NCBI GenBank assembly: GCA_038200085.1
Contig: JBBPYG010000050.1
Location: 1 to 60,426 of the forward strand
Direction: 5' to 3'
DNA: 60,426 nucleotides
Origin: Candidatus Limnocylindria bacterium
GTDB taxonomy: Bacteria > Chloroflexota > Limnocylindria > P2-11E
Below are positions 11,431 to 60,426 of the stretch, one piece after another (the first letter of the stretch is position 1; every line of letters begins with the position of its first letter). The notes beneath the pieces were generated by a model. That model did not search any database. It had not been told where the DNA came from and saw only the letters and a program-made list of their open reading frames with translations. The translations under genes were made by a program, and so were the position numbers.

Positions 11431-11476
11431 CGTGTCACAGGTGCCGCCCGCTTCGACGTCACCTGTCCGTCGAGCG

Positions 11477-19204: not shown

Positions 19205-19276
19205 GCCCCCGTAGCTCAGTGGATAGAGCGCAGGCCTCCGGAGCCTGAAGCAGGCGTTCGAGTCGCCTCGGGGGTA
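19205..19276 (+). tRNA. tRNA-Arg (anticodon CCG)
   Basis: Hand-folded cloverleaf. Acceptor GCCCCCG/CGGGGGT, D-arm GCTC-AGTGGATA-GAGC, anticodon arm CAGGC-CTCCGGA-GCCTG (CCG), T-arm AGGCG-TTCGAGT-CGCCT, discriminator A. No encoded CCA. Confidence 0.85.
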
Positions 19277-35263: not shown

Positions 35264-35426
35264 CCGCCCCGCAGCGCTCCTTTTTGGTCCTTTGCCCGGC
35301 CGCGCTGCGGACGTCCTGCCCCCGGCTTGACATGTACGTTTCGTGACACACACACTTGCCGTCAAGGGCGGGGAGCGCAGGCAGGCCCGGCGATCCGTGC
35401 AAAGTGTGGGAAGGAACCGTACAAAC

Positions 35427-36818: not shown

Positions 36819-36858
36819 GCTCGCGGTCTCATTATTTCTGCCACGGAGGTCAGGCTCG

Positions 36859-37110
36859 ATGTTCGGACACATCAACACCGCGCTCCGGTTCTTCCTCATC
36901 GGTCTCGCCGCGGGCGTGCTTGTCGCGCCGCGCGCGGGCCTCGACACACGGGCGATGATCCGGAGGCGCCTGGAGTCCATCGCGAACGACGTGCTCGGCA
37001 TCGCCGGAATGTCGCCGATCCAGACCGGCGGCGCCGCTGCCGGCGGGGAGCGTCGCCGCGGCCGCGGCCGGCGCAGCGGGGATGCGGGTGCCGACAGCGC
37101 CGCGACGTAG
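36859..37110 (+). CDS. YtxH-like small membrane/stress protein
   Basis: The ATG is preceded by GGAGG. FFLIGLAAGVLVAPRAGLDTRAMIRRRL is the YtxH signature pattern. Confidence 0.55.
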   Translation: MFGHINTALRFFLIGLAAGVLVAPRAGLDTRAMIRRRLESIANDVLGIAGMSPIQTGGAAAGGERRRGRGRRSGDAGADSAAT

Positions 37111-37348
37111 GGCAGGGCCAGCTGGCGTCGTCCGCCTGCTCGAGGCGACCGGCTCGTCGCCGCGCGGTTGGGAGGCCGCCGTCGCCGTGGCGGTCAGGTC
37201 GGTCCGGGAGGAGGCACCCGCGCCGCTCGGGGTCGAGGTCTCGCGCCTCTGGGCCGACCTCGACGGCGCGAAGCTCGCCCGCTTCCACGCATCGGTGAAG
37301 ATCGCCTACCGGCAGCAGCTCGGGAAAGTGCGCGCCTCTGCGAAGTAG
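37082..37348 (+). CDS. Dodecin-like small protein
   Basis: VVRLLEATGSSPRGWEAAVAVAVRSVREE...ARFHASVKIAY resembles the dodecin core (ELxGxS...W..A...A). The start is uncertain. Confidence 0.45.
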   Translation: MRVPTAPRRRAGPAGVVRLLEATGSSPRGWEAAVAVAVRSVREEAPAPLGVEVSRLWADLDGAKLARFHASVKIAYRQQLGKVRASAK

Positions 37349-37386
37349 GGCGGTCTTGGCACGCCGTCCGTCACCTGTTCGGCTTG

Positions 37387-37416
37387 TTGACACGCGCGCC
37401 GACCAGCACGGACAAT
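37387..37416 (+). promoter_or_regulatory. Candidate sigma-70 type promoter for the merR-like gene
   Basis: TTGACA (37387-37392), an 18-nt spacer, then GACAAT (37411-37416), about 45 nt upstream of the ATG at 37459. Confidence 0.3.
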
Positions 37417-37424
37417 CGCGGCTC

Positions 37425-37458
37425 ACGCGGAGCCTGGGGAGACGCGGAGCCTGGGGAG
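37425..37458. repeat. Perfect 17-bp tandem duplication (ACGCGGAGCCTGGGGAG x2) abutting the merR-like start codon
   Basis: Read directly from the sequence: 37425-37441 and 37442-37458 are identical. Each copy carries the GGGGAG SD-like element. Confidence 0.9.
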
Positions 37459-38055
37459 ATGCATGTGATGGCGGAGCTCGAAGGTCGCGACGCGCTCGCT
37501 CAAGTCCTGGTCGCTAATGACGGAGAGGTCATCGCGCGCCTGCGCCTGTCGGCCGCGGAGGCCGCCCGCGTCTGCAACGTGACGCCGCGCCAGCTCATCT
37601 ACTGGACGAGGAAGGGCCTGGTGAAGCCGTCGAACGACGGCGATCACGACTACGACGTCTTCGCGCTGGAAAGGGTGATCCGGATCCGCCAGGCGCTCGA
37701 AAAGGGCTACTCGCTCGAGCGCGCGCACCAGGTGGTGCAGCGCGACCTCGAGTCGATCTCGAGCGAGATCGGCCGCCTCGACGGCCTCGACGGCGACCGC
37801 CTCGAGGAGGAGCTGCGCGCGCGGCTCGAGCGGCTCGAGGAGCGCGTGGGGCGCCTCCGGCGAACGCTCCCCGCGGTGCTGAGCCTCGCGCGGCTGCGTC
37901 GCGCGGTCGCCCGCCTGGCGCGCCTCGAATCGCAGGGCGCGCTCGAGCCGCCGGCCACGGACGTCGAGGCCGCGAAGGCGGTCGCGCTGCGCCTCGGACG
38001 CGCGGTCGAAGAGCTCGAGTCGCTCGTGGGAGAGGTCCAGGCCGCCAGGGCCTAA
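37459..38055 (+). CDS. MerR family transcriptional regulator with long coiled-coil C-terminus
   Basis: In track ORF 37168..38055. LSAAEAARVCNVTPRQLIYWTRKGLV is a MerR HTH. It is followed by heptad-like ELRARLERLEERVGRLRR. Confidence 0.7.
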   Translation: MHVMAELEGRDALAQVLVANDGEVIARLRLSAAEAARVCNVTPRQLIYWTRKGLVKPSNDGDHDYDVFALERVIRIRQALEKGYSLERAHQVVQRDLESISSEIGRLDGLDGDRLEEELRARLERLEERVGRLRRTLPAVLSLARLRRAVARLARLESQGALEPPATDVEAAKAVALRLGRAVEELESLVGEVQAARA

Positions 38056-38085
38056 CAAGCGCGTTCGGTCGATACGCTTCGCCCG

Positions 38086-39675
38086 ATGCCGGCCGTGCGC
38101 GCCGCCGCGGCCATCGCGAGCGGCAAGATCGCGCGCTCCCTCCTGCGCGCGTCGGGGCGCGGCGCCACCGCCCTGCCTGGCCTGGTGGCCCTCGCCGTCG
38201 ATCCCCGTCTCGTCGCGCGGCTCGCCGATGCCCTGCCTCACGGCGCAGTCTGCGTCAGCGGCACCAACGGCAAGACCACGTGCGCGCGGATGATCGCGGA
38301 CATCGCGCGCGGGGCGGGATGGAGCCCGGTGCACAACCGCTCGGGATCGAACCTGGACCGGGGGGTCGCCGCCGCGCTGCTCGCGGACGCGACCTGGCGC
38401 GCGACGCCGCGCGGCGACGTCGGCATCTTCGAGGTCGACGAGGCTTCCCTCCCGCGCGTGCTCCGGCGCCTGTCGCCGCGCGTCGTGCTCGTGACGAACC
38501 TGTTCCGCGACCAGCTCGACCGCTACCACGAGATCGACGCGCTCGCGCGCCGGATCGGCGTCGCGCTCCGGGCGCTGCCCGACGACACCGTCGTCGTGCT
38601 GAACGCCGACGACCCGATCGTCGCCTCGCTCGCGCTCGGGAGAAAAGGCCCCGTGATCACCTTCGGGGTCGACGACCCAGCGGTCGGCGGGACGGTGCCG
38701 CAGGCGATCAGCGACGCGACGCGGTGCCCGCGCTGCGGCGAGCCGCTCGTCTACCGGCGCATCGTGCTGGCCCACGTCGGCGACTGGGCGTGCCCGGGGT
38801 GCGGCCTCGCGCGTCCGCCGCGCGACGTCGCGGCGGCGCGCGTCGCCCTCGGTCCCGACGGCAGCGAGATGCGGCTCGTCGGCGCAACCCGCGCCGATGC
38901 GGCGAGCATCACCCAGGACCCAGAGGGCGGCGAGATGAGTGCCTCCGGGGCGTCCGGATCGGACGACGAGACGGCGACTTCCGGTCCAGAGGGGAGTGGG
39001 ATCCCATCGTCGGGTCGGTCGCGCCCGCGGGCCGCGATCGCGCCCCGCGGGCCGGAGGGTGCGCAGCTGCGCGCCCGGGCGGCCGCCGGTGGTGACGGGG
39101 AGATCGTGCGCGTGCCACTGCCCGGTCTGTACAACGCGTACAACGCACTCGCGGCGATCGCCGTCGCGCGCGTCCTCGAGATCCCGCTGCGCACCGCGAC
39201 CGCGGCGCTCGCAGCGTTCCGTCCCGCCTTCGGGCGGCTCGAGGTCGTCAGCGCCGAGGGCCGCACGCTGCGGCTGGTGCTGGTGAAGAACCCCGCCGGC
39301 TTCAACGCCGCGATCGCCGCGCTGCTCGAGACGGGCCGCCGTCCGCGGCTGCTCGCCGCGCTGAACGACCGCGACGCGGACGGGCGCGACGTCTCGTGGA
39401 TCTGGGACGCCGACTTCGAATCGCTCGCGCCGGCGGTCGAGACCGCCGTCGTGACGGGGCTGCGCGGCCCCGACCTCGCGCTGCGGCTGAAGTACGCCGG
39501 CGTACCGCGCGACCGCGTCAGCGTGGTCGACCGGTGGCGCGACGCGATCGCTCGTGCGCTGGCGGACGCGCCGGCGGGGTCCGAGATCGTGGTCCTCGCG
39601 ACGTACACCGCGATGCTCGCGCTGCGCGACGCGCTCGCGGACATGGGCCACGTCGGTCGCTTCTGGGAGGACTGA
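38086..39675 (+). CDS. murT: Mur ligase family protein MurT (lipid II isoglutaminyl synthase subunit) with an internal low-complexity insertion
   Basis: GTNGKTT P-loop, LVTNLFRDQLDRYHE, Cys4 ribbon CPRCG...CPGCG, PGLYNAYNALAA, and a DUF1727-like C-terminus (DGRDVSWIWDADFE). It is followed by gatD. Confidence 0.85.
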   Translation: MPAVRAAAAIASGKIARSLLRASGRGATALPGLVALAVDPRLVARLADALPHGAVCVSGTNGKTTCARMIADIARGAGWSPVHNRSGSNLDRGVAAALLADATWRATPRGDVGIFEVDEASLPRVLRRLSPRVVLVTNLFRDQLDRYHEIDALARRIGVALRALPDDTVVVLNADDPIVASLALGRKGPVITFGVDDPAVGGTVPQAISDATRCPRCGEPLVYRRIVLAHVGDWACPGCGLARPPRDVAAARVALGPDGSEMRLVGATRADAASITQDPEGGEMSASGASGSDDETATSGPEGSGIPSSGRSRPRAAIAPRGPEGAQLRARAAAGGDGEIVRVPLPGLYNAYNALAAIAVARVLEIPLRTATAALAAFRPAFGRLEVVSAEGRTLRLVLVKNPAGFNAAIAALLETGRRPRLLAALNDRDADGRDVSWIWDADFESLAPAVETAVVTGLRGPDLALRLKYAGVPRDRVSVVDRWRDAIARALADAPAGSEIVVLATYTAMLALRDALADMGHVGRFWED

Positions 39676-39677
39676 GC

Positions 39678-40415
39678 ATGGCCGCCGTGCCGGACCTGCG
39701 CATCGGCCACCTCTACCCGGACCTGATGTCGATCTACGGAGACCTCGGGAACGTGCTCACGCTCGCGCGCCGCGCGCGCTGGCGCGGGTTCGATGCGGAG
39801 GTGCGCGCGTTCACCGCGGGAGAGCGCTTCGACGCCGAGTGGCCCGACGTGTGGTTCTTCGGGGGCGGGCAGGACCAAGGGCAGGACGTGGTGAGCCGCG
39901 ACCTCGCCGGACCGAACGGCGAGTCGCTGCGGCGCTCGCTCGACGGCGGAGCCGCGGTCCTCTCGGTGTGCGGCGGATACCAGCTGCTCGGGCGCGAGTA
40001 CGTCCCCGAGGAAGGTCCGGCGATCCGAGGGCTCGGGGTGATCGACGCGACGACGCGCGCGGGCCGGCGCCGATTCGTCGGCAACCTCCTCGTCGACACT
40101 CCCGACGGCGAGCTCATCGGCTTCGAGAACCATTCGGGCCGCACGTACCTCGGCCCCGCGGCGCGCCCGCTCGGCCGCGTCGTCGTCGGTCACGGCAACA
40201 ACGGCGAGGACCGGACCGAGGGCGCGGTCCAGGGAAAGGCCATCGGCTGCTATCTCCACGGGTCGGTACTGCCGAAGAACCCGTGGCTGGCGGACCGTCT
40301 GATCGGCTGGGGCCTCGCGCGCCGGCACGGCCCGGTCGAGCTCGAGCCGCTCGACGACCGCGAGGAGCGGTCCGCGCACGAGAGCGCCGTGGAGGTCGCC
40401 CGCTCGCGGCGCTGA
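39678..40415 (+). CDS. gatD: Glutamine amidotransferase GatD (CobQ/CobB-type GATase partner of MurT)
   Basis: IGHLYPDLMSIYGDLGNV, SVCGGYQLLG (catalytic Cys), FENHSGRT and CYLHGSVLPKNP are present. Confidence 0.85.
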   Translation: MAAVPDLRIGHLYPDLMSIYGDLGNVLTLARRARWRGFDAEVRAFTAGERFDAEWPDVWFFGGGQDQGQDVVSRDLAGPNGESLRRSLDGGAAVLSVCGGYQLLGREYVPEEGPAIRGLGVIDATTRAGRRRFVGNLLVDTPDGELIGFENHSGRTYLGPAARPLGRVVVGHGNNGEDRTEGAVQGKAIGCYLHGSVLPKNPWLADRLIGWGLARRHGPVELEPLDDREERSAHESAVEVARSRR

Positions 40416-40516
40416 CCGCACGCCACCGTTCCCTTTAAGGGGCGCCTACCAGCGATCACTCGGTGACGCCTGCGTGCGCGAACGCTGGCCGAGCTGATCC
40501 TCGGACGACGCGCTCT

Positions 40517-40530
40517 GGTACGCGCGTACC
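40517..40530. promoter_or_regulatory. Perfect 14-bp palindrome GGTACGCGCGTACC upstream of the hydrolase/tad genes (possible operator)
   Basis: Seen directly in the sequence. It lies about 50 nt upstream of the ATG at 40582 in a 166-nt intergenic region. Confidence 0.25.
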
Positions 40531-40581
40531 GTCCGGGCGTCCTGTTCCCGCGCCCGCGACACGCGACGACAGTGCGCCGCG

Positions 40582-41781
40582 ATGGTCACTCGCACGAGGC
40601 GCCTCCTGCTCGCCGTGGTAATCGCTCTCGTGCTGCTTCCGGCGGCAGGGGCTGGGACAGCGTCCGCGAAGGACCGCCCGGCCCGCACGGTGCTGCGGCC
40701 CGTCGACGTCGGCGCGGACGTCGCGGTCCGGCCGGCGTCCGACCCCACGCGCGAGCTGATCCTTTTCGTGGGCGGCATCGGTTCGCGAACGAGCGACACG
40801 ACGTTCGACGACCTCATGGACACGTACTTCGGCGATCCGCGCTACGAAGTGCGCCGCCTGGGCAGCCTCCCTGACTACACGTATGACAGCCACGGAAGCC
40901 TCGACGCGGCGGCGACGGCGCTGGTGACCGAGATCCGCGAACTCGGCCGGGCCTACGCCGGCGTCCACCTCATCGCGCATTCCATGGGCGGCGCGGTCGT
41001 CGACCGGGCGTTCGCGCTGGGGCTTTCGCACGACGATGGCGTCCTGACGTATGTCGCGCTCGCCTCGCCCCACAACGGGTCCCTCGCGTCGCAGCTCGGC
41101 CAGGGTTTGATCGCCCTCGAGGGCGATGGCTTCACGCTCTTCCGCGAGACGCTCGGCCCGGTCCAGGATCCCGGCAGCGTCGCCGCCGGCGACCTCGCCG
41201 CGACGCGGCCCGTTGCGCCTCCGCGCGGGGTCGCCCGGCTGGACGTGCGCATGAGCTCCGATGCCGTCGTACTTCGTCGCGACGCCTACGACCCCGGGGT
41301 CGACTCGCGCGTGCTGAGCCCGGTCGACCGCGGCTTCCTCGCCGGGCACGGCGGCATCACCGCCGATCCGCAGGCGGTCGCTCTCGTGCGGGCGACGATC
41401 GAGCAGCACAGCGTTCCACCGGACGAGCGCAGCGCGCTGCTTCGACTCGCGGCGGACTCGGAGGATCTTCAGAACGGCATGCTGGTGGGAGCGTGCCTCT
41501 TCGCCTTCACCGGTGTATGCGCGCTGGTGGCGCTCGAGCTTCGCAGGCGTCGCCTCGTGCGCCGCGCCGAGGCGTGGGTCGATCGCGGGGTCGCGGATGG
41601 CGCGAGGGAGGTCGCCCGCGCCACCGGGTCCGTCGCCCCACCTATCTGCAAGGGCGTCGCGGATGCCGCGACGACGATCGCTCGAGCGACCGCAGCGGGC
41701 GCATCGCGGGTGTGGTCCGCCGTTACCGATGGAACTTGGAGGGGCGTGATCCATCGCGGACCGGCGGGCCCGCTCTGGTGA
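40582..41781 (+). CDS. Secreted/membrane-anchored alpha/beta hydrolase (lipase/esterase-like)
   Basis: Signal peptide, VGGIGS, the nucleophile elbow AHSMGG, and a C-terminal TM helix (GACLFAFTGVCALVALEL). The stop overlaps the tadE-like start. Confidence 0.7.
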   Translation: MVTRTRRLLLAVVIALVLLPAAGAGTASAKDRPARTVLRPVDVGADVAVRPASDPTRELILFVGGIGSRTSDTTFDDLMDTYFGDPRYEVRRLGSLPDYTYDSHGSLDAAATALVTEIRELGRAYAGVHLIAHSMGGAVVDRAFALGLSHDDGVLTYVALASPHNGSLASQLGQGLIALEGDGFTLFRETLGPVQDPGSVAAGDLAATRPVAPPRGVARLDVRMSSDAVVLRRDAYDPGVDSRVLSPVDRGFLAGHGGITADPQAVALVRATIEQHSVPPDERSALLRLAADSEDLQNGMLVGACLFAFTGVCALVALELRRRRLVRRAEAWVDRGVADGAREVARATGSVAPPICKGVADAATTIARATAAGASRVWSAVTDGTWRGVIHRGPAGPLW

Positions 41782-42206
41782 TGCGTCGCGCGCTGACCCG
41801 CGGCCTCGGTCCACGCGGACAGGCAGGTCAGGCGCTGGTCGAGTTCGCGCTGGTAGTTCCGATCCTCCTCGTCTTCTCGTTCGCGATCGTGGAGATCGCC
41901 CAGCTCGGCGTCGCGCGCCTCGCGCTTCAGCACGCGGCCTCCGAGGGCGCCCGCGCAGGCGCGCTGACCAACGACGACGCCGCGATCCACTCCAGCGTGG
42001 CTCTGGCCGCGTCTCCTCTCGACGCGGGCCGGATCGACGTGGAGATCGAGCCGACCGCATCCGAAGCTCCGCGGACGAGCGACCCGCGCGGATCGTTGCT
42101 CGCGGTCCGCCTCCGGTACGCGATGCCGCTCCGGCTCGGCTTCATGGTGCTTCCCACGTTGACCATCAGCGGTTCCGCCGCGCGCCGCGTCGAGTGGACA
42201 CCGTGA
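41781..42206 (+). CDS. TadE-like pilus assembly protein
   Basis: GQALVEFALVVPILLVFSFAIVEIAQL is the TadE N-terminal motif (G/xxxE-F). Confidence 0.75.
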   Translation: MRRALTRGLGPRGQAGQALVEFALVVPILLVFSFAIVEIAQLGVARLALQHAASEGARAGALTNDDAAIHSSVALAASPLDAGRIDVEIEPTASEAPRTSDPRGSLLAVRLRYAMPLRLGFMVLPTLTISGSAARRVEWTP

Positions 42207-42652
42207 TCGGCGTCCAGCGCCCGGAGCGTCGTCGCGCTCAAGGCGGCTCAGCCGGCGCTGATGACGAACAAGGGCAGGCGCTGATCATCGCGGTATTCGC
42301 GCTCGCGATCGCCGCGACGGCCGTGATCGGGCTGCGCGCCGCTCAGGCGCGTCTGCTCACCGGTGCGGGCGACGAAAGCGCCGGAGAAGCGGCCGTCGAA
42401 GCAGCCGCGTCGGTGTATGCCGATGCGGCGTTCGCGCGCCATCGCGGCGGTCCGTCGCGAGATCCGGGTCTCGCCGACCCGGCCGTCGTCGACGCCGCCC
42501 GAGCCGCCGCGATGGACGCCGCGCGCGCGAACGGCCGGGACGCTCCGGTCGAGCCTCACGCGACCGTTGGCGCAGGCGTGATCGACGTCGAGCTCAGGCT
42601 CGCAGGACGCAGGTACAGGGCGGACGTGCCGGTAACATGCTGCCCTCGCTGA
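42194..42652 (+). CDS. TadE/TadG-like pseudopilin-type protein
   Basis: EQGQALIIAVFALAIAATAVIGL is a hydrophobic N-terminus typical of the Tad-G-like family. Tad genes lie on both sides. Confidence 0.55.
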   Translation: MDTVIGVQRPERRRAQGGSAGADDEQGQALIIAVFALAIAATAVIGLRAAQARLLTGAGDESAGEAAVEAAASVYADAAFARHRGGPSRDPGLADPAVVDAARAAAMDAARANGRDAPVEPHATVGAGVIDVELRLAGRRYRADVPVTCCPR

Positions 42653-43056
42653 CTTCGCGCGCGTTGCGCCGCCCGCCGCGCCGCGTGGTGCACGGGGCGA
42701 TCCTCACGCTGCTGCTGTCGGCCGCGGCGGTCTTCTCGCTTGGGTCCGAGCCCGAGGAGACCCAGCAGCCGGCGGCGCTCGCTGATCGCCTGGCGCCTTC
42801 GAGTTGGGCGGTGACGATCCCCGCGGGATGGCTCGCCGCTCCGATCGCGGGATTACGGCCGGGCGACCGGATCGACGTGCTGGCCGTGCGTCCGGGCGAG
42901 CGGCCATCGGCATCCGCGATCGCGTTCGACCTCGAGGTGATGAGCAGCGACGACCGTGCCCTGGTCCTCGACGCCCGTGCCGAGGACGCGACGGCGCTGG
43001 CGGTCGCGCGCGCCGGGGGTCTCCTGATCATCCCGCTTCTCCGCTCGACGCGATGA
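42637..43056 (+). CDS. CpaB/RcpC-like Flp pilus assembly protein (short)
   Basis: N-terminal TM helix, then GLRPGDRIDVLAV... and ALAVARAGGLLIIPLL, resembling the CpaB C-terminal domain. The assignment rests mainly on position in the tad block. Confidence 0.45.
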   Translation: MLPSLTSRALRRPPRRVVHGAILTLLLSAAAVFSLGSEPEETQQPAALADRLAPSSWAVTIPAGWLAAPIAGLRPGDRIDVLAVRPGERPSASAIAFDLEVMSSDDRALVLDARAEDATALAVARAGGLLIIPLLRSTR

Positions 43057-43991
43057 CGACCGCGCTCGTGTGCGGCGGGCCCCGCCTCGCCGAAGCGGCG
43101 CGCGTTCTCGGATTGGAGGAGCCGCGTGGGGACCCCGACATCGTGCTCCTCGAACTCGCTGACGGCGCGGCGGTCGAGCGCGCGTCGCTGCTGCCAGCCG
43201 GGATCCCGCGCGTCGTCGTCGCCGACCCGAAGCACCGCGAGCTGCTGCGCGCCCTCGGCCTCGCCGCGGGCGCCGTCGCGGACGCCTCCGAGGCAGCGTC
43301 CATCGGGCCCCTGATCGCGGCCCTGGTGCCGGCAGCCCGTCGCGCCGCGCGCGTCGTTCTCTGCACCGCCGCTCGCGGCGGGGTCGGACGCACGCTGCTG
43401 GCGGCCAATCTCGCGCGCCGGATAGCCGGCGGCGGCGCGTCGGTGCTCGCGCTCGACACGACCGGCACGGGGCTGCTGGCGTGGTGGTTGAGGGTGGACG
43501 GGCGGCCGTGGTCCGATTTGCACGGCCTTGCCCAGGAGCTGTCCGGCGAACACCTCGGGCTCGTCGCAAGCGATGTCGCGAAGGACCTGCGGTCATTCGG
43601 CGCCGGACCGCTCGCTCCGGTGGCGGACATCGCGGTCGCGGCGACGAAGGCCGCGCTCGACCTCGCGGACGTCGTCATCATCGACGCCGCGCCGTTGGCG
43701 GATCCGTGCACCCGGGCGCTGCAGGGCGCAGCCGACCGCACGATGGTGCTGACCTACGCCGACCCGGCATCGGTCGCGGCGCTGTCGGCCGCGGAGAGCC
43801 CAGAGGACGCGTGGCTCATCGTCTCGCAGGCGGGGACCCGGGCGATCCAGGGCCGGCCCGTGCTGCGGTCGCTCCCGCGCGATGACCGCGGGGTGGGCCG
43901 CGCGCTCACGGCCCGCGACGCGGTGACCGGCGCCCTGGGGCGCGCATACGACGCGATCGCGGAGCTCGTTCTCCTCGATGTCTCGCCGTGA
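43053..43991 (+). CDS. TadZ/CpaE-like ParA/MinD-fold protein with a degenerate Walker A
   Basis: In track ORF 42804..43991. VVLCTAARGGVGRTLLAANLA resembles KGGxGKT with both Lys replaced by Arg. VIIDAAP is present. It sits directly upstream of cpaF. Confidence 0.6.
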   Translation: MTTALVCGGPRLAEAARVLGLEEPRGDPDIVLLELADGAAVERASLLPAGIPRVVVADPKHRELLRALGLAAGAVADASEAASIGPLIAALVPAARRAARVVLCTAARGGVGRTLLAANLARRIAGGGASVLALDTTGTGLLAWWLRVDGRPWSDLHGLAQELSGEHLGLVASDVAKDLRSFGAGPLAPVADIAVAATKAALDLADVVIIDAAPLADPCTRALQGAADRTMVLTYADPASVAALSAAESPEDAWLIVSQAGTRAIQGRPVLRSLPRDDRGVGRALTARDAVTGALGRAYDAIAELVLLDVSP

Positions 43992-44265
43992 ACGCCGCGA
44001 CCCGCGCGCGTCTCGAGCAGATCGTCGTCGCACGTCTGCGTGAGGCTCCTGATGGCCGTCCCCGCCACGACCAGCTCGCCGGTGCTCTTCGCGACGGCCT
44101 GGCCGCGGAACGCGTCGTCGTTCCCTCAGGTGAGCTGCGCCAGCTCGAGCGGTGGCTTGACGATCGGCTCTTCGGACTCGGCGACCTCGCGCCGCTCCTG
44201 CGCGACGACCGCGTCAGCGAGGTGATGGTGAACGGCATGCGCGGGGTGTGGGTCGAGCGCGACGG
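43988..44265 (+). pseudogene. cpaF: cpaF/tadA (Tad secretion ATPase) 5' fragment, interrupted after codon 92 by the casposon
   Basis: Reads ...LGDLAPLLRDDRVSEVMVNGMRGVWVERDG, then runs into the TIR and a TAA at 44270-44272. The same frame resumes at 60286 ([21 protein letters not shown]...). Confidence 0.85.
44252..44265. repeat. Left copy of the 14-bp target-site duplication GTCGAGCGCGACGG
   Basis: Identical to 60286-60299. The flanking bases differ on both sides (g/c before, g/t after), so the duplication is exactly 14 bp. Confidence 0.9.
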
Positions 44266-44315
44266 GGGATAACTACTGGGCCGTCGCGAAACGCGGCAAA
44301 GTCGGACAGCGTGAA
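44266..44315. repeat. Left terminal inverted repeat
   Basis: GGGATAACTACTGGGCCGTCGCGAAACGCGGCAAAGTCGGACAGCGTGAA, compared with the reverse complement of 60235-60285. By my manual alignment about 40 of 51 columns are identical with one 1-nt gap, and the terminal 12 nt are perfect. Confidence 0.85.
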
Positions 44316-44406
44316 CGGCACGGCACGGCGCACTCCCGGGTGCAAGCCATCCATCGGGAATACTTGGCGGGCTAGACCGTCAAGTCTTCACGCTACGGAG
44401 GAAACC

Positions 44407-44616
44407 GTGCACTGGCTAAGAGAGTTCTTGAATCGGCGTCGTGTCAGTTCCGAAAGGATTGGGCTGGAAGCGACTGTTAAGACCGAGGAGCGCCTCGTGG
44501 CGGAGAGAGTTCCAACGCCGAAACAAGTCCAATTCAGAGACTCATTTACGTTCAACGAGCGAGGCGCCGCGAATCGAAGGACGACGGTCGGCGATCGACG
44601 ACCGCATATCGCATAG
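44407..44616 (+). CDS. Small hypothetical protein (69 aa)
   Basis: GTG at 44407 preceded by GGAGG (44396-44400) with a 6-nt spacer. It lies in the frame of track ORF 44248..44616, whose upstream part crosses the TIR and is not credible. Confidence 0.35.
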   Translation: MHWLREFLNRRRVSSERIGLEATVKTEERLVAERVPTPKQVQFRDSFTFNERGAANRRTTVGDRRPHIA

Positions 44617-44627
44617 CCGATTCTCAA

Positions 44628-45164
44628 GTGCCCTATTCGTCGGGTGCTGATCTGGACGCTGAGGACCGCATCACGTTCCGCCTTGAGGGCACCCCGATAC
44701 GCGGCGAGAAGGGGGCGGCCCTCGCGGCGTCGCATGTGGTCGAGCGGCTCAATGCGGAAGGTGGCCAGTGGAGTCAAATGGAGGTGACCGGGCGTGATGC
44801 AAGGCACGAGAAGGGGATCGACGTCACGTTCCAGGGTGTCGACGGAACTACGCTTGAAATACAAGTCACGGCAGCAGAGCGGGGACTATGGAAGCAGCTT
44901 CAGAACGATAACGTGGTCGAAGGTGCGATATCTATCGACTCCGCAGTCGAGGCGCTTTGGCAGGCTACTACTGAGAAGCGCACGAGATCTGATCCGCGGG
45001 TGGTCCTGGTTCTCGACGCTGCCAACATGGGACAGTTCATATTCGATCCGGTTATCCGCAGGTTTCACGAGCTGCACGGGGGCGACGCTGGAAGGGTTGG
45101 ATTCAGCCAGATCTGGCTTGCCGGTCCGACGGCGGAGCGGACCCTTCGGTTGGATGTGGAATAG
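44628..45164 (+). CDS. Hypothetical protein (178 aa)
   Basis: Protein-like composition in the less GC-rich left arm. I recognise no motif. The antisense ORF 44388..44864 was judged spurious. Confidence 0.5.
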   Translation: MPYSSGADLDAEDRITFRLEGTPIRGEKGAALAASHVVERLNAEGGQWSQMEVTGRDARHEKGIDVTFQGVDGTTLEIQVTAAERGLWKQLQNDNVVEGAISIDSAVEALWQATTEKRTRSDPRVVLVLDAANMGQFIFDPVIRRFHELHGGDAGRVGFSQIWLAGPTAERTLRLDVE

Positions 45165-45319
45165 CTTGGCTCCGCAGGCACGAACTCGCGGCAAAGTGAT
45201 CCCGGCCCTTCGGCTGGCCGTTCCGATGCTGACAGGAGCCATCGCGGGCCAAGGGCGAGCCCTCACAAAGACACGCTCCGGCTCTTAGGCGGCATGTTGA
45301 CTCCATCCTTAATGCTCCA

Positions 45320-46102
45320 TTGCTCATGACGAGCACCGTTCTCGCCAGCAGTTGGCACAAGTTCCATTGGGCGCAGATACACATGCGGGCTCTTGATGCC
45401 GCTTTAGGCCGGATCTTCGAACTGGGCGAAGACACCATCGCCATCGATACGGAGGTCAAGATTCAGGGCGACGATGCAACGGCCCTCGTGCGCATCGCCA
45501 CGCTCCCGCTGATTTCGTCCGACTGCGCGCTCATCCTCGGTGACACACTCCAGAACTTCCGCGCGGCGCTCGATCACCTTGCGTGGGATTTGGTCAAGAT
45601 CGGGACGCAACCCAACCCATTTAACCCGCAGCAGATCTACTTTCCGATGACCAAGAGCGGTAAGAGTTTCGGGCGGCTCATCAACCAGAGACTGCCGGGC
45701 GTCAACCGCGAATATCGCGCAATCGTCCGCCGGTACCAGCCGTATGGCCGCGGCAAGGCGGCGAAAGCGATTCGCTGGCTCCGGAATCTCTCGGACGCTG
45801 ACAAGCACCGCGTCATGACCCCGATGGTCGTCAACGCTTCTCATATCAACCTGACAGTCAGCAGTAATTGGACCCTCGCTGGCTTCGAGTACATCGTCAC
45901 GCGACCCCGCGCGCTTGATGTCGGCACAGAAGTCGCGCGCGCGAAATTCATTCGTAGCGGTGCCGAAGGCTGTGCCGTGAAGATGTACGGCCACCTGCCC
46001 ATCTATCCAGCGTTGACCTATGGACGCTCGCTCGACACGGTCTTGGTTTCGATTTCCGAGACGGTGCGGGAAATTCTTGTGGTCTTTGACGAAGTCCTTT
46101 AG
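45320..46102 (+). CDS. Hypothetical protein (260 aa) with an R-x4-H motif (possible HEPN-like fold)
   Basis: LQNFRAALDHLAWDL contains RAALDH (R-x4-H), and a second RN-containing stretch is WLRNLSDADKHRV. I have no firm family assignment. Confidence 0.5.
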   Translation: MLMTSTVLASSWHKFHWAQIHMRALDAALGRIFELGEDTIAIDTEVKIQGDDATALVRIATLPLISSDCALILGDTLQNFRAALDHLAWDLVKIGTQPNPFNPQQIYFPMTKSGKSFGRLINQRLPGVNREYRAIVRRYQPYGRGKAAKAIRWLRNLSDADKHRVMTPMVVNASHINLTVSSNWTLAGFEYIVTRPRALDVGTEVARAKFIRSGAEGCAVKMYGHLPIYPALTYGRSLDTVLVSISETVREILVVFDEVL

Positions 46103-46392
46103 GCCAGCGTCTCGTTGAACGCTCCGCACTTTGAGCACTTGAACACGAGTTCGACGACGTGCGAGGTCTTGATTCCTACGAGCAGGGGCGACCCGCACTT
46201 GCCGCACTCCATCGTCACGTTGCCCTGGCTGCGCATGGCCACGGTTCCCGGTCCCTCGTAGACGAGCACCGAGCGGGTCCCTGGTGCGGGTTCGGGAATC
46301 ACGGCCATCCTAACGTGACGGGTCTTGTTCATTTGCGCGGTCTTTTTCGGCACGCTTCCTCCACGGCCGTTTGCCATCGGTAACGTACTCAC
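46099..46392 (-). CDS. Small zinc-ribbon protein (97 aa)
   Basis: CGKCGSPLL...KCSKCGAFN (two CxxC pairs). It is the last gene of the minus-strand polB operon and convergent with the 260-aa gene. Confidence 0.5.
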   Translation of the reverse strand: MSTLPMANGRGGSVPKKTAQMNKTRHVRMAVIPEPAPGTRSVLVYEGPGTVAMRSQGNVTMECGKCGSPLLVGIKTSHVVELVFKCSKCGAFNETLA

Positions 46393-46568
46393 CGGGCGGT
46401 AGCCGAAGCCGAACGCCGTACGGACACGCTGCCCGAAGGAGTGCGGCGGGCCGGACGCTGATCGCCCGTCCTCGCGGGAGTGTACCGCCGTCGAACGGCA
46501 GAGTCGCCGAGGTTTAGTGTTCCGAAGGCTCGCTCCGGTGACGCTGCGCGAGCGGTAGTCGATTAGCG

Positions 46569-54994: not shown

Positions 54995-56098
54995 ATGGGA
55001 CTGCGCTTCTTTCGACGCGTCCGTGTGCTACCCGGGATGACGATCAATCTCAGCAAGTCCGGCGCGTCAATGTCCTTCGGCGTCCGTGGCGCCCACTACA
55101 CGGTTGGCCCGCGCGGCCGGCGCGTCACCGTTGGCCTCCCTGGCACAGGCTTGTACTACACACAGTCAAAGGGCAGCGGGCGAGCGGGATCACGCGCTGT
55201 GGCTTCGGGGCCAGTGATCCGACGGCAGGCGCCAGCTCCGGTGCCGATAACTCCGCCGCCCAATTCTCCGAAAATTCGACCAGAGGGTCGTCTCACCCCG
55301 GGCTTCTTCCAGCGCCTTGTCACGCCGCCGGAAGAGCAGGAGCTTGTGGCAGCATTGCGCGACCTGACTGCAGGTGACGAGGTTCACGCACTGACGCACC
55401 TTCGCGCCGCAGCCCACCTAGCGGATGGAGCATTCCTAGCTGGATTGCTCGCGCTCAAGACGGGCTCGCTGGACGAGGCCCTGGCCGACTTGCAGTTCGC
55501 GCTCGATCACGTCGACAGGCTGGGCCGTGGATTGGAGCGCTATGGGGTCAAGGCGACAGTAAGCCTGCGAATCGCCGAGGGGCTCACGGCGCATTTGCCG
55601 CCCAGCGAAGAAGGTGTACTGCTCGGCCTCGTGGAGGTTTATGAACGCCTGCAACGCTCAGCGGATGCGCGCGACTGCCTGACGAAGCTGCAAACGCGAT
55701 GGCCGGATGATCCGGTCGTGTTGGCCTCCCGGGCGGAGCTGCGACTAGAGGCGGGTGATCGAACGGCTGCTCAGGAGGTCGTAACTATGACCAACGGCGT
55801 TTCGAACTCCACGCCTGTGCATACGGTCGTCTTGCTTTACCGCGCGCGGGCCTTGCGTCTGCTCGGTTTGCCCGATGCCTGCGTCGAAACCACGTCAAAG
55901 GCACTAACGCAGCCCAAGGACAGATCGGACGAACTCCAGCGCGAGCTTCGCTATGAGCGTGCGCTCGCCTATGGCGAGATGGGCGATGCGCGCCGAGCGC
56001 GGACCGAGCTCGAGCGGATTTACGCGGACGACTCGACCTTCGCTGACGTGGCGCGCCGCCTTGGCGTCCCGTCGGGTCAGACAGCGTCCAGCAGCTAG
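54995..56098 (+). CDS. DUF4236-domain protein with TPR-like C-terminal region
   Basis: N-terminus MGLRFFRRVRVLPGMTINLSKSGASMSFGVRGAHYTVGPRGRRVTVGLPGTGLYY matches the DUF4236 pattern. The C-terminal half is helical-repeat-like. Confidence 0.65.
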   Translation: MGLRFFRRVRVLPGMTINLSKSGASMSFGVRGAHYTVGPRGRRVTVGLPGTGLYYTQSKGSGRAGSRAVASGPVIRRQAPAPVPITPPPNSPKIRPEGRLTPGFFQRLVTPPEEQELVAALRDLTAGDEVHALTHLRAAAHLADGAFLAGLLALKTGSLDEALADLQFALDHVDRLGRGLERYGVKATVSLRIAEGLTAHLPPSEEGVLLGLVEVYERLQRSADARDCLTKLQTRWPDDPVVLASRAELRLEAGDRTAAQEVVTMTNGVSNSTPVHTVVLLYRARALRLLGLPDACVETTSKALTQPKDRSDELQRELRYERALAYGEMGDARRARTELERIYADDSTFADVARRLGVPSGQTASSS

Positions 56099-56101
56099 TG
56101 A

Positions 56102-57190
<1,089 letters not shown>

Positions 57191-57241
57191 CTCGAACCAA
57201 TAACGTCACGAGAACGCCGAGCGTTACTTCGGTATTTTCAC

Positions 57242-58054
57242 CTACGAACCGCCACGCTGATGGGCCCACATATCAATTCGCTCCTCCAATCGCTCCAGCC
57301 GTTCGAGGACGGCGTCAAGCCGCTCACTTGACGGATCAACATGACGTTGAGCACGAACGAAGATGGACGCGACCGCGGCAGTGATCAGCGAAAGAAAGGC
57401 GAGTCCGCACAGGGCCACGATCAGCTCAAGGGCGTGCGCCTCCGCAGTGCGGAGCGCCACGCCGCCGTCCCCCATGGCCGTCGCTCGTGCGGTCGCCCAC
57501 CAAAGTGCCGCGCCTGCACTCGGCACCGACTCCGGCTCGATTGCGCGCACGGCCGCGGCTGCTGCGACGACGATGACCGTCATGACGATGCCCGCAGGTC
57601 CGACGATCGAGGCCCGCTTGAACGCTCTGGCCTGGCGGTGCAAGCGTCGTCCCGCGAGGGCCAGTCGGAGGATTCGAAGCGTTCGCAGAACCCGGAGGGC
57701 CTGCCACGCCGCCGGGGCCATCGGCGGCGTCGCGACAACGAGCAAGATGTCGAAGGCGTAGTCGCGAAAGAAACTCCGTCGCGGCCGGAGCGCGAAAATT
57801 CCGATGAGACAAAAGGCGAATCCCAACCAAATGAACCAGTCGAGATATTCAGTCAGCGAGAGCAATGGCGAGTCATCGGCGAGTGCCTCTTCCAGCACGA
57901 TCGTTGGCACAACGAGCAGGGCGAGGGCGGTCATCGCAACGTCAAAACGGGCAATGCCACGAGCATGTTCACCTCCGCTCATTTCGTCGGTTGAATCGGT
58001 CCGCCGCGCAGTGCGCCTGCCCGATGTGATGCGAGCGTCGTCGCCGGCGGTCAT
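57242..58054 (-). CDS. Voltage-gated-type cation channel homolog with a non-canonical pore signature
   Basis: S4-like RVLRTLRILRLALAGRR. The pore region is ALWWATARATAMGDGGV, where K+ channels have TxGYGD. A C-terminal coiled-coil LERLERLEERI is present. Confidence 0.65.
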   Translation of the reverse strand: MTAGDDARITSGRRTARRTDSTDEMSGGEHARGIARFDVAMTALALLVVPTIVLEEALADDSPLLSLTEYLDWFIWLGFAFCLIGIFALRPRRSFFRDYAFDILLVVATPPMAPAAWQALRVLRTLRILRLALAGRRLHRQARAFKRASIVGPAGIVMTVIVVAAAAAVRAIEPESVPSAGAALWWATARATAMGDGGVALRTAEAHALELIVALCGLAFLSLITAAVASIFVRAQRHVDPSSERLDAVLERLERLEERIDMWAHQRGGS

Positions 58055-58294
58055 GCGTCGTTCACCCGGCTGGAAACACGGGCGCCATGGTGTTCGAAAA
58101 CCGCAGCGCGATCATCTCGGACCTCAGGCACTGCTGCGAGCGGCCGCGAGTACAGGCGTACAACGGACGGAACCGCTCCGGACACCTCTAGTGCCGCTCT
58201 TCTGGCGTCCGTGCCAAAGAAACAGCGACGGACCGTGGGTCACTGCTGAGTTCCGAAGCGGCGCCCTTGTGTGCCGAGATCACTCGATCGCGGA

Positions 58295-59734
58295 CTAATG
58301 GGCGTAGAGGGGCCGAAAGACGCCAGCGTGGTAGGAGCAGGCTCCACTTCGTCCGCCCGATAGGCTAAATGCTGTGTCCTGGCACTCTACTACGTAGCCA
58401 ACTCCGTTCCCGAAGCTCGGGATGCAGTTGAAGTAGGAGCAGAAGCCTAATGGCGGGGCGTAGATCAATGTCCCCGCGCAGAAGTTGTATCCCCAAGGGT
58501 TCGCCGGTGCCGTCTGGCAATCGTTCGTCACCGGCGGAGCCGGAGGCGGCGGAGGAGCGGGCGGAGGTGGAAGAGCAGCGGCCGGTGGCGGGATCGGTGG
58601 TGCTGTCCCGTCCGGATTGAGGACCGTGACGAGCCAGAAGACGCCGTAGTCCTCGAGCCACTGCGCTCCCTCGATCAAGGGACGGATGTAGAGGCGGTAG
58701 TAGCCGGGTACGGAGGGCGCCTGGACGGTGAACTGGAACCAGGCGATCTGTCCGGGTCCCACGTAGAAGGTGGGCTGTATCGCGACCCGGTTGTAGCGGG
58801 GCCACCCAGTGTTCGGCGACCCGAGCGCCCCGTCGCCGCCGAGCAGGCTAGGCCGGTCCTGTCCAGGGCTGGGGTTCCATGTGCCGAGGTAGGCGACCTC
58901 CCCGATGCGGCCGTTCACCCAGCCGAACGACCCGGAGTTGTAGTACGCGACCACGGCTCCGGACTGCGCGCCGGGACAGAGCGTCGGATACCCGGACTGG
59001 CCGTACCAAGCGGCGTGGAAGCCCGGAATGCCGGCGAGCGGCTGGGCCGGAGGCGGAATGCCCGGGCCGACACTACCGGTACACGTCGCGGCGGGAGCTG
59101 TTCCGAAAGCGATGTCGAGCAGCGGATGGAGCTCGATTCCGTTCGGCGCCACGCCGGTCTGGCCGTGAAGGAAGTCGAAGAAGCCGACGCCGCGGACGGT
59201 CACTTGCATGTTCGCGCTCTGGAAGGTCGTCGTCGCGCGCAGGACCGCGTCGAACTCGCGCCGGGCGTTGGCGATTCCGGCCAGCAGCGGATCGGTGGAC
59301 GGTACGCACGCCGGGTTGGCGATCTCGGTGATCATCGTCCGGCCAACGGAGTCGGCGATTACGAGGTGGTAGTCGGAATCGTCTTCGAGCTTGTACAGCG
59401 TCAGCGTCGCCGTGATCGAGTAGACGGTCGTTTCGGTCGGGGCGATCCGGTTGTTCGACGGCAGGAACGCTGGCTTGGGGAGACTCGTGAGATAACCGAT
59501 CGTCGTCGGCGTGGTGCTGGAGAGGTTGACTAGACCAACGTCCGCGTCGGTGCCGATCTTCACCGCCTCGCGCTCGATGCCGCAGGTGACCGCAGCGGCC
59601 GGGCTGTTAGCGCCGAAACCTGTGTACGACGCGAGCAGCCCTATAACCATCAGGAACGTCATGGCCGCTCGTAACCCGCGTCGCGTTGTGGGCTGGAGAT
59701 CCACCAATAGATCCTCCTCGCTAGCTCGTCTCAC
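58295..59734 (-). CDS. Secreted multi-domain protein with Pro-rich linker and DUF3761-like Cys-rich C-terminus
   Basis: N-terminal TM/signal (AAMTFLMVIGLLAS), a PPIPPPAAALPPPPAPPPPPAPP linker, and a C-terminal GYVVECQDTAFSLSGGRSGACSYHAGV resembling the DUF3761 pattern. Confidence 0.55.
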   Translation of the reverse strand: MRRASEEDLLVDLQPTTRRGLRAAMTFLMVIGLLASYTGFGANSPAAAVTCGIEREAVKIGTDADVGLVNLSSTTPTTIGYLTSLPKPAFLPSNNRIAPTETTVYSITATLTLYKLEDDSDYHLVIADSVGRTMITEIANPACVPSTDPLLAGIANARREFDAVLRATTTFQSANMQVTVRGVGFFDFLHGQTGVAPNGIELHPLLDIAFGTAPAATCTGSVGPGIPPPAQPLAGIPGFHAAWYGQSGYPTLCPGAQSGAVVAYYNSGSFGWVNGRIGEVAYLGTWNPSPGQDRPSLLGGDGALGSPNTGWPRYNRVAIQPTFYVGPGQIAWFQFTVQAPSVPGYYRLYIRPLIEGAQWLEDYGVFWLVTVLNPDGTAPPIPPPAAALPPPPAPPPPPAPPVTNDCQTAPANPWGYNFCAGTLIYAPPLGFCSYFNCIPSFGNGVGYVVECQDTAFSLSGGRSGACSYHAGVFRPLYAH

Positions 59735-59980
59735 GCGCTGACGACTTCGCCTCGCACTAAATGTGCCCCGGCCCGCTTCAGCGCTTGGGCGTCAGTGCCG
59801 CGATGGGGCTTGGGCGACCGAAGCAACATATCGTCATCTCGCTTGTCGCGGTCAGGCCCGCGAGAACGAAGCGACGGCAAACCCAAGCCTCGCTCGGTGA
59901 GGGCCATACCGAGGTAGGGTGAGCGACTTCGCAGCGGAGGCCAGCCGGGACCCCTGTTGACAGAAATGCGAGCCCCCACC

Positions 59981-60195
59981 GTCGAGCGGGACAGTCGCCT
60001 CGAAGAGACCGGCATCCGGTTCACCGATCCGGAACAGATCCTCGTCCTCATCGAGCGGCTCGCCGCTCGGCCGGCGCATCGACCTCGCAACGCCGATCGT
60101 CGACGCGCGCCTCCCCGACGGCTCCCGCGTCCACGCGGTCATCCCGCCGATCTCGCTGCTCGGGCCGGTCCTCACGATCCGCCGCTTCGCGGGCC
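59981..60195 (+). pseudogene. Internal cpaF-like fragment (codons equivalent to about 89-160), frameshifted, just inside the right TIR
   Basis: Starts with GTCGAGCGGGACAG (12/14 identical to the TSD) and reads [28 protein letters not shown] 5-nt deletion relative to the host copy falls near 60061. In the shifted frame it continues [45 protein letters not shown]. By my count it has 11 mismatches in 136 nt against 60286-60426. Confidence 0.8.
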
Positions 60196-60234
60196 CGATG
60201 GAGGCGTCAGCGCCAGTTCGCCGCGCCGCGTCGC

Positions 60235-60285
60235 TTTCACGGTGTCCGACCTCTTGGCGTTTGCCGACGGCTTAGTAGTTATCCC
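60235..60285. repeat. Right terminal inverted repeat
   Basis: ...TTCACGGGTGTCCGACCTCTTGGCGTTTGCCGACGGCTTAGTAGTTATCCC is the inverted match of 44266-44315. Confidence 0.85.
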
Positions 60286-60299
60286 GTCGAGCGCGACGG
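60286..60299. repeat. Right copy of the 14-bp target-site duplication GTCGAGCGCGACGG
   Basis: Identical to 44252-44265 and directly abuts the TIR terminus. Confidence 0.9.
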
Positions 60300-60426
60300 T
60301 CGCCTGGAAGAGACGGGCATCCGGTTCACCGATCCGGAACAGATACTCGTGCTCATCGAGCGACTCGTCGCGCCGCTCGGCCGGCGCATCGACCTCGCGA
60401 CGCCGCTCGTCGATGCGCGCCTTCCC
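60286..60426 (+). pseudogene. cpaF: cpaF/tadA 3' portion resuming after the casposon (runs off the window end)
   Basis: [47 protein letters not shown] is open to the window end. It is in frame with 43988-44265 once the element and one TSD copy are removed. Confidence 0.8.

Follow-up and report, generated by a model that had tools for sequence, protein, structure and literature searches.

The window analysed here is a 60,426-nt contig of Candidatus Limnocylindria (JBBPYG010000050.1), near whose end cpaF, the gene for the ATPase of the Tad pilus, is split by a 16,020-bp segment (44266-60285). This segment encodes a Cas1-type integrase (casposase), a family B DNA polymerase (PolB) and an HNH nuclease, is bounded by terminal inverted repeats (TIRs), and is flanked by a 14-bp target-site duplication (TSD). 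Our analysis indicates that it is very probably a casposon, or self-synthesizing transposon, that transposed into the cpaF gene of its host, a soil Chloroflexota bacterium. The CRISPR adaptation module has been proposed to descend from casposons. An earlier note on this DNA had read the segment in the same way, and the integrase, the family B polymerase, the HNH nuclease, the TIRs and the 14-bp TSD were each tested and found. The note had the element right and missed an internal cpaF fragment, which makes the right end composite, as well as the recurrent natural split of PolB. The comparison loci that we fetched, 88 around Cas1 relatives and 80 around cpaF, carry L-numbers (L001, L012, L096 and so on). 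The principal features of the locus, with open reading frames (ORFs) given by their protein length, are:

43988..44265, plus strand: 5′ part of the host cpaF (Tad pilus ATPase), codons 1-93, 99.3% identical to nt 1-278 of the L096 cpaF
44252..44265: left TSD copy, GTCGAGCGCGACGG, 14 bp, present as a single copy in the L096 empty site
44266..44322, plus strand: left TIR, 12/12 at the termini, 57 nt ungapped at 77%, gapped similarity to ~44358
46569..48788, minus strand: PolB polymerase subunit, 739 aa, with motifs A (LDIRSTYPT), B (KTFGSSAGYG) and C (YRDTDS) and KxY
48781..49770, minus strand: PolB N-terminal/3′-5′ exonuclease subunit, 329 aa, with ExoI FDTET, ExoII NAPFD and ExoIII YCRAD
49767..50291, minus strand: HNH nuclease, 174 aa, CxxCG ... 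HH ... CxNCH
51680..53212, plus strand: casposase, 510 aa, with a Cas1 domain (residues ~14-310), a Zn-binding motif (CRSCG...CPDC) and a C-terminal helix-turn-helix (HTH)
59981..60190, plus strand: internal cpaF fossil of 210 bp, cpaF nt 265-479, starting with the TSD-like GTCGAGCGGGACAG, with a 5-nt deletion and frame-shifted
60229..60285, minus strand: right TIR, pairing with the left TIR, gapped similarity from ~60193
60286..60299: right TSD copy, GTCGAGCGCGACGG, 14 bp, a perfect match to the left copy
60286..60426, plus strand: host cpaF resumes at codon 89, including the duplicated 14 bp, 97.2% identical to L096 10265-10405, and leaves the window

The element opens with GGGATAACTACT at 44266, the reverse complement of which finishes at 60285, and this sequence occurs once per strand in the window. 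The two termini match perfectly over 12 of 12 positions, and the TIR pair is 77% identical over 57 nt without gaps and similar over ~93 nt with few gaps, in agreement with the inverted repeats of about 50 bp described earlier. The left TIR also holds a subterminal motif, GCGAAACGCGGCAAAGTCGGAC, in common with the element of L012. Immediately outside both ends lies the perfect 14-bp repeat, which is found nowhere else in the window. When the window was scanned for 9-nt inverted termini 4-40 kb apart and bordered by direct repeats of 14 nt in which up to 3 TSD mismatches were allowed, 14 candidates were returned. The casposon pair alone has 0 TSD mismatches together with 40/50 TIR matches, whereas the other 13 reach 18-26 of 50, which we take as chance level. 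The GC content is ~75% outside the element versus 60-71% inside it.

The 5′ part of cpaF ends ...VWVERDG, and its ORF enters the TIR and stops at a TAA (..DGG*). The insertion site comprises cpaF codons 89-93 (VERDG), so that the gene is truncated after codon 93, and the reading frame is restored when one TSD copy is removed from the joined flanks, as expected from the interruption that the earlier note had placed here with the frame resuming at 60286. The empty site that the note had suggested looking for is present in L096 (JBHEML010000007.1, Candidatus Limnocylindria). This locus was found when GTDB species genomes were scanned for the interrupted protein, a scan whose matches were mostly Candidatus Limnocylindria and other Chloroflexota metagenome-assembled genomes (MAGs). 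L096 is collinear with the window and its cpaF is uninterrupted: positions 1-10278 align to window 33974-44265 at 96.0%, and the alignments to the two flanks overlap by exactly 14 bp, which correspond to the TSD and are single in L096. The intact gene encodes a 370-aa T2SSE/CpaF-type ATPase; its homologs match Pfam T2SSE and carry source names such as 'CpaF family protein', and in both L096 and the window cpaF is preceded by TadE-like and ParA/CpaE-like genes. The host is bacterial, with flanks 96-97% identical to a Candidatus Limnocylindria MAG (Chloroflexota), and at least 51 of the 80 fetched cpaF loci are uninterrupted at the casposon position. The empty site in L096 proves the insertion of the element, and the pair of filled and empty sites therefore makes the insertion both real and evolutionarily recent. 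Given a perfect TSD and an empty site in a genome with ~96% identical flanks, the insertion is young.

The 510-aa protein is a Cas1, as had been claimed. It matches Pfam PF01867 at 2e-34, with a weak HTH_3 match at the C-terminus, and scores 93.8 bits against the generic NCBIfam cas1 model TIGR00287 (cutoff 71.7), while passing none of the CRISPR-subtype NCBIfam cas1 models. Its top match in the PDB is the Methanosarcina mazei casposase 6OPM at 3.8e-21, compared with 2e-13 for the best CRISPR Cas1. Residues E167, H250, D262 and E265 are invariant across 40 homologs, and a CxxC...CxxC motif lies between the Cas1 domain and the HTH. The integrase of the element is intact in these residues. Cas2 and other cas families found no match among the scanned element ORFs (~20 for Pfam, 10 for NCBIfam and 9 for PHROGs) and the window contains no CRISPR-like repeat array, consistent with the absence of cas2, other cas genes and CRISPR repeats noted earlier. 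Tyrosine, serine and DDE recombinases likewise gave no match among the scanned ORFs in Pfam and NCBIfam.

PolB is encoded by two genes in two frames, for the exonuclease and the polymerase half, which overlap by 8 nt with a start/stop overlap (GTGGATAG). Searches of both ORFs with Pfam, PHROGs and PDB phmmer returned nothing significant, and small PolB sequence profiles reached E=0.16 at best, with a weak preference for archaeal PolB. Because these sequence-only searches were not significant, the identity of PolB was settled by structure prediction and Foldseek, which bear out the assignment of the 329- and 739-aa ORFs to this family. The AlphaFold models have a predicted local distance difference test (pLDDT) score of 90.6 for the polymerase half and 88.3 for the exonuclease half. 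For the polymerase half, all 50 of the 50 PDB matches listed are family B polymerases, including KOD, 9°N, phi29, Pol II, RB69 and Pol epsilon, with 164 matches at E<=1e-3, and Foldseek ranks archaeal PolB and phi29 equally. The 329-aa half matches the N-terminal/exonuclease domains of Pol epsilon, E. coli Pol II and the PolB of African swine fever virus. The Exo I-III, motif A-C and KxY residues (K375 and Y377) are invariant across PolB homologs, and the C-terminus of the polymerase subunit consists of a helical/HTH region and a Zn ribbon. In most relatives PolB is one gene of ~1,000-1,100 aa (fused in L002 and L010), and some fused homologs exceed the threshold of Pfam PF03175, which covers protein-primed and organellar polymerases. 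The split occurs at the identical point in L011 and L012 and with a start/stop overlap, and is therefore a recurrent natural arrangement and not random damage.

The third core gene, the HNH nuclease, was likewise recovered: a 15-member profile of the 174-aa ORF matches the HNH domain of E. coli McrA (6GHC) at E=1.2e-4, in addition to a weak PHROG HNH match, and residues C53, C56, H96, C111 and H115 are invariant. The window element has in common with its relatives the synteny PolB-HNH-conserved protein / Cas1, termini of the type GGG(A/G/T)TA and a TSD of 14 bp. Among the 88 fetched Cas1 loci, 72 have PolB adjoining Cas1, ~3 kb upstream and divergent, the same as in the window. These relatives are numerous, with 681 matches in a protein database search, 850 clusters at 50% identity and E<=1e-30 in an exhaustive search, and at least 554 loci in GTDB species genomes. 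Their hosts are Acidobacteriota, Chloroflexota, Actinomycetota (Thermoleophilia, Gaiellales and Solirubrobacterales), Gemmatimonadota, Eremiobacterota and Dormibacterota. In the literature searched we found neither a description of this large bacterial group of at least 554 GTDB loci nor a paper on casposons in Chloroflexota or Acidobacteriota. The 'small bacterial family' of the earlier note holds for the literature and fails for the data. One partial Cas1 relative (43% identity) lies at 1145-1855 of L176 (IMGVR_UViG_3300048818_000271), a contig that IMG/VR classes as viral.

Twenty-seven of the related loci are complete elements of 11-19 kb with 14-bp TSDs, 26 of which are perfect, and with TIRs that begin GGG(A/G/T)TA or similar. 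Their usual target is bipartite, TTGAC(C)-N17/18-TAnACT, and resembles a sigma-70 promoter (L023-L088, for example L044 2141-2154, L055, L068 and L077). The TSD of these relatives consists of 9 nt followed by TTGAC, and one TSD copy therefore keeps the target motif intact. A tRNA lies near the target in only 3 of the 27, one example being L081, where the site is ~60 nt upstream of a tRNA-Gln gene; 6 loci had no Rfam match. Many related casposons stand in tandem arrays that share one TSD, such that the flank beyond the TSD opens with another GGG..TA terminus. This is seen in L038 and L066 (both OY969555.1) and in the right flanks of L039, L071, L073, L075, L077, L078, L084 and L087. In several contigs, the first or last base coincides with an element end or with the cpaF TSD (L002 and L015 at position 1, L168 at its last base, exactly at the cpaF TSD, and L074 at both ends), and L074, which is 11.8 kb long, carries inverted repeats of 145 bp at its two ends. 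Such contig ends may mark places where polymorphic insertions broke the assembly, or they may belong to free linear copies.

The window element occupies a different kind of site, with the sequence context GGTGAACGGCATGCGCGGGGTGTGG-GTCGAGCGCGACGG-TCGCC inside cpaF, in keeping with the earlier statement that its target is unlike the 3′ ends of tRNA and aEF-2 genes. At least three other, divergent casposons lie at the same cpaF nucleotide in other Chloroflexota, all of them joined to cpaF after ...GAGCGCGA(C/T)GG:

L093 casposon: TSD GTCGAGCGCGACGG; TIR GGGGTCCTGC / GGGGTCCTGCTACGG; Cas1 50% and PolB ~31% identical to those of the window
L094 casposon: TIR GGGATAAGAGAT / GGGATAAGAGATAAGG
L170 casposon: TSD ATCGAGCGCGATGG; TIR GGGGTATGGGG; host CpaF only 60% identical

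In addition, truncated CpaF proteins from other assemblies (P0272, P0276 and P0282) end ..DGG or ..EGG, as expected from GG|GGGATAA. Since other casposons are joined at the same nucleotide elsewhere, the cpaF site is not accidental. Within the N-terminal region of CpaF, the stretch that the target encodes (SEVMVNGxRGVWVERDG) is the most conserved, and this conservation would offer a sequence-specific integrase a target that stays stable from species to species. Two broader ideas about this site were rejected. Scored with a position weight matrix (PWM) of the relatives' targets, the TSD block of cpaF (TCGAC for TTGAC, with GC-rich upstream 9 nt) ranks 30 among the 88,684 positions of the reconstructed host DNA, whereas the site overall ranks 343 of 88,684 because the -10-like block fails (score -6.7); the site is not a mimic of the promoter-like target, as the TSD block alone fits. 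Neither is cpaF a general target of Cas1 relatives, with cpaF nearby in 0/88 Cas1 loci and casposon genes in 0/80 GTDB cpaF loci. In a Limnocylindria MAG (L092, identical to L097, 3742-5589, protein P0255), cpaF is intact at the casposon site and is instead cut near codon 235 (...AELRLP) by a large serine recombinase gene (Pfam Resolvase and Recombinase). A second, unrelated kind of mobile element therefore uses cpaF.

At the right end of the element, the 210-bp cpaF fossil is 89% identical to the host flank, 85% to L092 and 91% to L096; over the same 141 nt, it differs from L096 by 11 mismatches and the 5-nt deletion, versus 4 mismatches for the true flank. Its left boundary coincides to the nucleotide with the casposon/target junction, and it ends where the right TIR region begins. 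Because of this boundary and the greater divergence from L096, we interpret the fossil as a former right flank in the cpaF of another lineage. Models of a tandem array and of a nested insertion were rejected, as these predict the outer end of a TIR abutting cpaF or a shifted restart of the right flank, neither of which is seen. In L095 (415-470), a non-GGG sequence (CGCGTTGTGGCTCGCGG...) breaks into a cpaF fragment at the nucleotide used by the casposons and may be a different or degenerate element end; this sequence and the one left of the window fossil (reverse complement GGTGGGGGCTCGC) both contain GGCTCGC.

By analogy with the archaeal casposases, Cas1 would bind the TIR ends and join their 3′-OH groups to the two strands of the target at positions 14 bp apart, and gap filling after strand transfer would then yield the 14-bp TSD. 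PolB would copy the element, the HNH nuclease may help in excision or end processing, and the HTH and Zn-binding domains may assist end processing and DNA recognition. The fossil would date from a previous residence in the cpaF of another Limnocylindria lineage. When the element was mobilised again, a right end further downstream may have been used, so that the flanking host DNA was carried along.

Several observations weigh against this reading of the segment as an intact casposon. Past the first 12 nt the TIRs are only 77% identical, and the activity of Cas1 and PolB is something we infer. The signals on the PolB subtype are mixed, given that its homologs hit the protein-primed family PF03175, whereas family 3 casposon polymerases have been described as RNA-primed-like, related to archaeal PolB3 and nested within family 2. 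The cpaF site matches the usual bipartite target in its TSD part only. The right end is anomalous and perhaps a rearranged composite: left of 59981, just before the fossil, no convincing TIR alignment is obtained, and the present right TIR lies on the far side of the fossil. A casposon-derived relic, inserted as described and no longer autonomous, would account for several of these features, with its PolB frameshifted, its TIRs degenerate and its right end rearranged around a pseudogene fragment. The placement of PolB in two frames with an 8-nt overlap is compatible with such decay, as is the failure to find a second TIR copy. A search with a 21-mer of the TIR gave 3 chance matches (Firmicutes) in GTDB species genomes and 0 in JGI metagenome contigs, and 10 matches of a junction 20-mer in JGI metagenomes were all chance, in unrelated genes. 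We nevertheless consider a relic unlikely, since the exonuclease/polymerase split falls at the same place in L011 and L012, all catalytic motifs of PolB are kept with a pLDDT of 88-91, the Cas1 catalytic residues are intact, and the perfect TSD together with the ~96% identical empty site indicate a young insertion.

The anomaly at the right end could also have a technical origin, in which the right 305 bp (cpaF fragment and TIR) would be an assembly artefact joining reads of two strains with different casposons at cpaF, with the true end at 59980. In its favour, the sequence evidently comes from a metagenome assembly, several strains carry different casposons at this cpaF site, and the internal fragment differs from L096 more than the true flank does. 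This explanation is improbable, as no TIR matching the left end is present left of 59981, whereas 60229-60285 does match it with 12/12 termini. Moreover, the junction of the cpaF fragment and the inner TIR shares no repeat able to mislead an assembler, and the direct-repeat family D1 is offset cleanly by 305 bp. Far less probable still is an element of another kind, such as a pipolin, prophage or linear plasmid in which Cas1 is cargo or a CRISPR remnant and a different enzyme integrates. The matches of PolB homologs to PF03175 and the one Cas1 relative on an IMG/VR contig point in that direction, but no tyrosine, serine or DDE recombinase was matched among the scanned ORFs, and neither capsid, terminase nor CRISPR array was found with Pfam, PHROGs and the window repeat check. 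In addition, TIRs with a 14-bp TSD are the signature of a casposase and not of crossing over at att sites, PolB accompanies Cas1 in 72/88 loci, and K375 and Y377 of the KxY motif are present, unlike in the polymerase of pipolins (piPolB). A casposon that transposed into cpaF is the reading we retain.

The remaining genes of the element comprise a zinc-ribbon protein, two ORFs next to cas1 and the cargo of both arms:

44628..45164, plus strand: 178-aa cargo ORF in the low-GC left arm; no match in Pfam, PHROGs, PADLOC or NCBIfam
45320..46102, plus strand: 260-aa cargo ORF; no family match (Pfam, PHROGs, PADLOC, NCBIfam)
46099..46392, minus strand: 97-aa zinc-ribbon protein, CGKCG...CSKCG; weak PHROG match
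50224..50913, minus strand: conserved casposon protein, a 229-aa ORF between HNH and cas1; no family match
50794..51600, plus strand: 268-aa ORF directly upstream of cas1; one homolog, in L008
53985..54881, plus strand: two small predicted lipoproteins or secreted proteins of 142 aa and 131 aa, cargo, recognised from their sequence
54995..56098, plus strand: DUF4236 and TPR cargo protein; Pfam PF14020 at 1.9e-21, TPR repeats
56102..57190, minus strand: 362-aa Pro/Thr-rich secreted cargo protein with a C-terminal membrane anchor, recognised from its sequence; no family match
57242..58054, minus strand: ion-transport (voltage-gated-channel-like) cargo protein; Pfam PF00520 at 3.8e-10
58295..59734, minus strand: 479-aa secreted cargo protein, 64% identical to the gene adjoining cas1 in L001

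By tblastn, 44 of 88 related loci have a homolog of the 229-aa ORF in the corresponding place, and the gene itself probably starts at a more internal codon of this ORF. At the position of the 268-aa ORF, relatives carry a variable gene, with positional analogues in L001, L011, L012 and L093. For the 260-aa ORF, a GC content at third codon positions (GC3) of 0.75 favours the plus strand over an overlapping minus-strand ORF. The cargo of the arms is without a link to DNA metabolism, and no defence system was matched in it by PADLOC. Relatives carry varied cargo, some of it possibly related to defence or conflict (L093 520-3297, L011 11643-16791, L012 1363-2091 and 6390-7103), with an AAA_23/SMC_N ATPase, a NERD protein and RHS/YD-repeat toxin, a Hypoth_Ymh protein and ParB_N among the families. 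L001, a Limnocylindria casposon, holds counterparts of the window cargo at 11403-13068, one of them 71% identical to the 131-aa cargo protein (window 54486-54881). The cargo identities of 64% and 71% exceed the 53% of the Cas1 pair, and cargo therefore seems to be exchanged among these casposons. Elsewhere in the window, a tRNA gene at 19205-19276 is the sole Rfam match and is unrelated to the element.

Our analysis has implications for how bacterial casposons move and what they carry. The pair of filled and empty sites provides direct evidence of recent mobility, which has so far been missing for bacterial casposons, and a naturally split PolB and an internal target-site fossil that would document transfer between lineages are new for this group. 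The size of the group changes the picture of how frequent casposons are in bacteria. Tentatively, we raise the possibility that the casposon lineage is now active in soil Chloroflexota, disrupting cpaF site-specifically, moving between species and carrying along the cpaF of a previous host (flank transduction). If true, capturing a flank would offer casposons a concrete means of acquiring cargo, and the repeated insertions into cpaF, by casposons and by a serine-recombinase element, would imply that the host tolerates or benefits from losing or switching its Tad pilus. With a defined target of 14 bp in a conserved gene, reused by divergent elements, an integration assay is easy to design, and the location of most complete relatives at TTGAC-N17/18-TAnACT offers testable rules of target choice for Cas1-family integrases.

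Among known systems, pipolins differ from the window element in that piPolB lacks the KxY motif present here, and in that the window element has TIRs and a TSD in place of att repeats at tRNA genes, with no tyrosine recombinase matched among its scanned ORFs. The precise insertion inside a non-essential gene is reminiscent of the skin element in B. subtilis sigK and of phage phi10403S in Listeria comK. As with such gene-switch elements, one gene is reused by independent elements, in cpaF by casposons at codon 93 and by the serine-recombinase element at ~codon 235. However, the skin element and phi10403S employ serine or tyrosine recombinases and excise precisely, whereas nothing in the window element shows excision or regulation. 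If a casposon excised and left the TSD behind, cpaF would gain 14 bp and lose its reading frame.

In the literature searched, known casposons number a few dozen and are almost all archaeal, with a handful of bacterial examples that are intergenic (PMC4779613, PMC9966878), and 54 casposon Cas1 sequences were counted in 2023 (PMC9966878). Family 1 (Thaumarchaeota, NitSJ-C1 and others) resembles the window element in having a protein-coding target (aEF-2) and a polymerase with protein-primed-type affinities. In contrast, it inserts at the 3′-distal end of aEF-2 and leaves the gene unaltered, and its Cas1 is without extra domains, an HNH gene is absent, the TIRs are of another type and the TSDs are 19 bp. 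Family 2 (Euryarchaeota, AciBoo-C1 and MetMaz-C1) includes the casposase 6OPM, the best structure match of the window Cas1, and has an HTH at the Cas1 C-terminus, an HTH-like PolB C-terminus and an HNH gene. Its TIRs start GGGGTAGTAGTTATC or GGGTAATAGTTATCCC (PMC4046053 supplement), which resemble the window GGGATAACTACT and its complement AGTAGTTATCCC. Site-specific integration with TSDs of 14-16 bp is a further likeness, as are tandem arrays, which occur among the relatives of the window element. Family 2 differs in its archaeal hosts, in its tRNA 3′-end or intergenic targets, which leave genes intact, and in its single-gene PolB of the archaeal PolB3 type.

The closest likeness is to family 3, with which the window element shares a bacterial host, a core of Cas1, PolB and HNH, and a size of 14-20 kb with variable cargo. 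NitAL212-C1 (family 3, Nitrosomonas sp. AL212) has a 14-bp TSD and a TIR starting GGGGTATG (PMC4046053 supplement), and the window element has the same TSD length and a GGGGTA-type TIR start. AceAut-C1, from Candidatus 'Acetothermum autotrophicum', has the Cas1 architecture Cas1-zinc-binding domain (ZBD)-HTH (PMC4046053), and the window Cas1 likewise carries a C-terminal Zn-binding domain and an HTH (521 aa in AceAut-C1 versus 510 aa here). An attempt to obtain family 3 reference Cas1 sequences from plasmids returned CRISPR-associated Cas1 alone (E 1e-7 to 1e-11). The window Cas1 is ~39% identical to that of AceAut-C1 over 186 aligned residues of the machine-read supplement text, in which the StrAlb, NitAL212 and HenMar fragments gave lower alignment scores. 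All described family 3 casposons are intergenic (PMC4779613), a trait that describes the family and does not define it, whereas the window element lies inside a coding sequence that it disrupts, at a site reused by several casposons. Its PolB is split into two genes, and the homologs of this PolB match a protein-primed Pfam family. From architecture and alignment, we provisionally place the element closest to the AceAut-like part of family 3.

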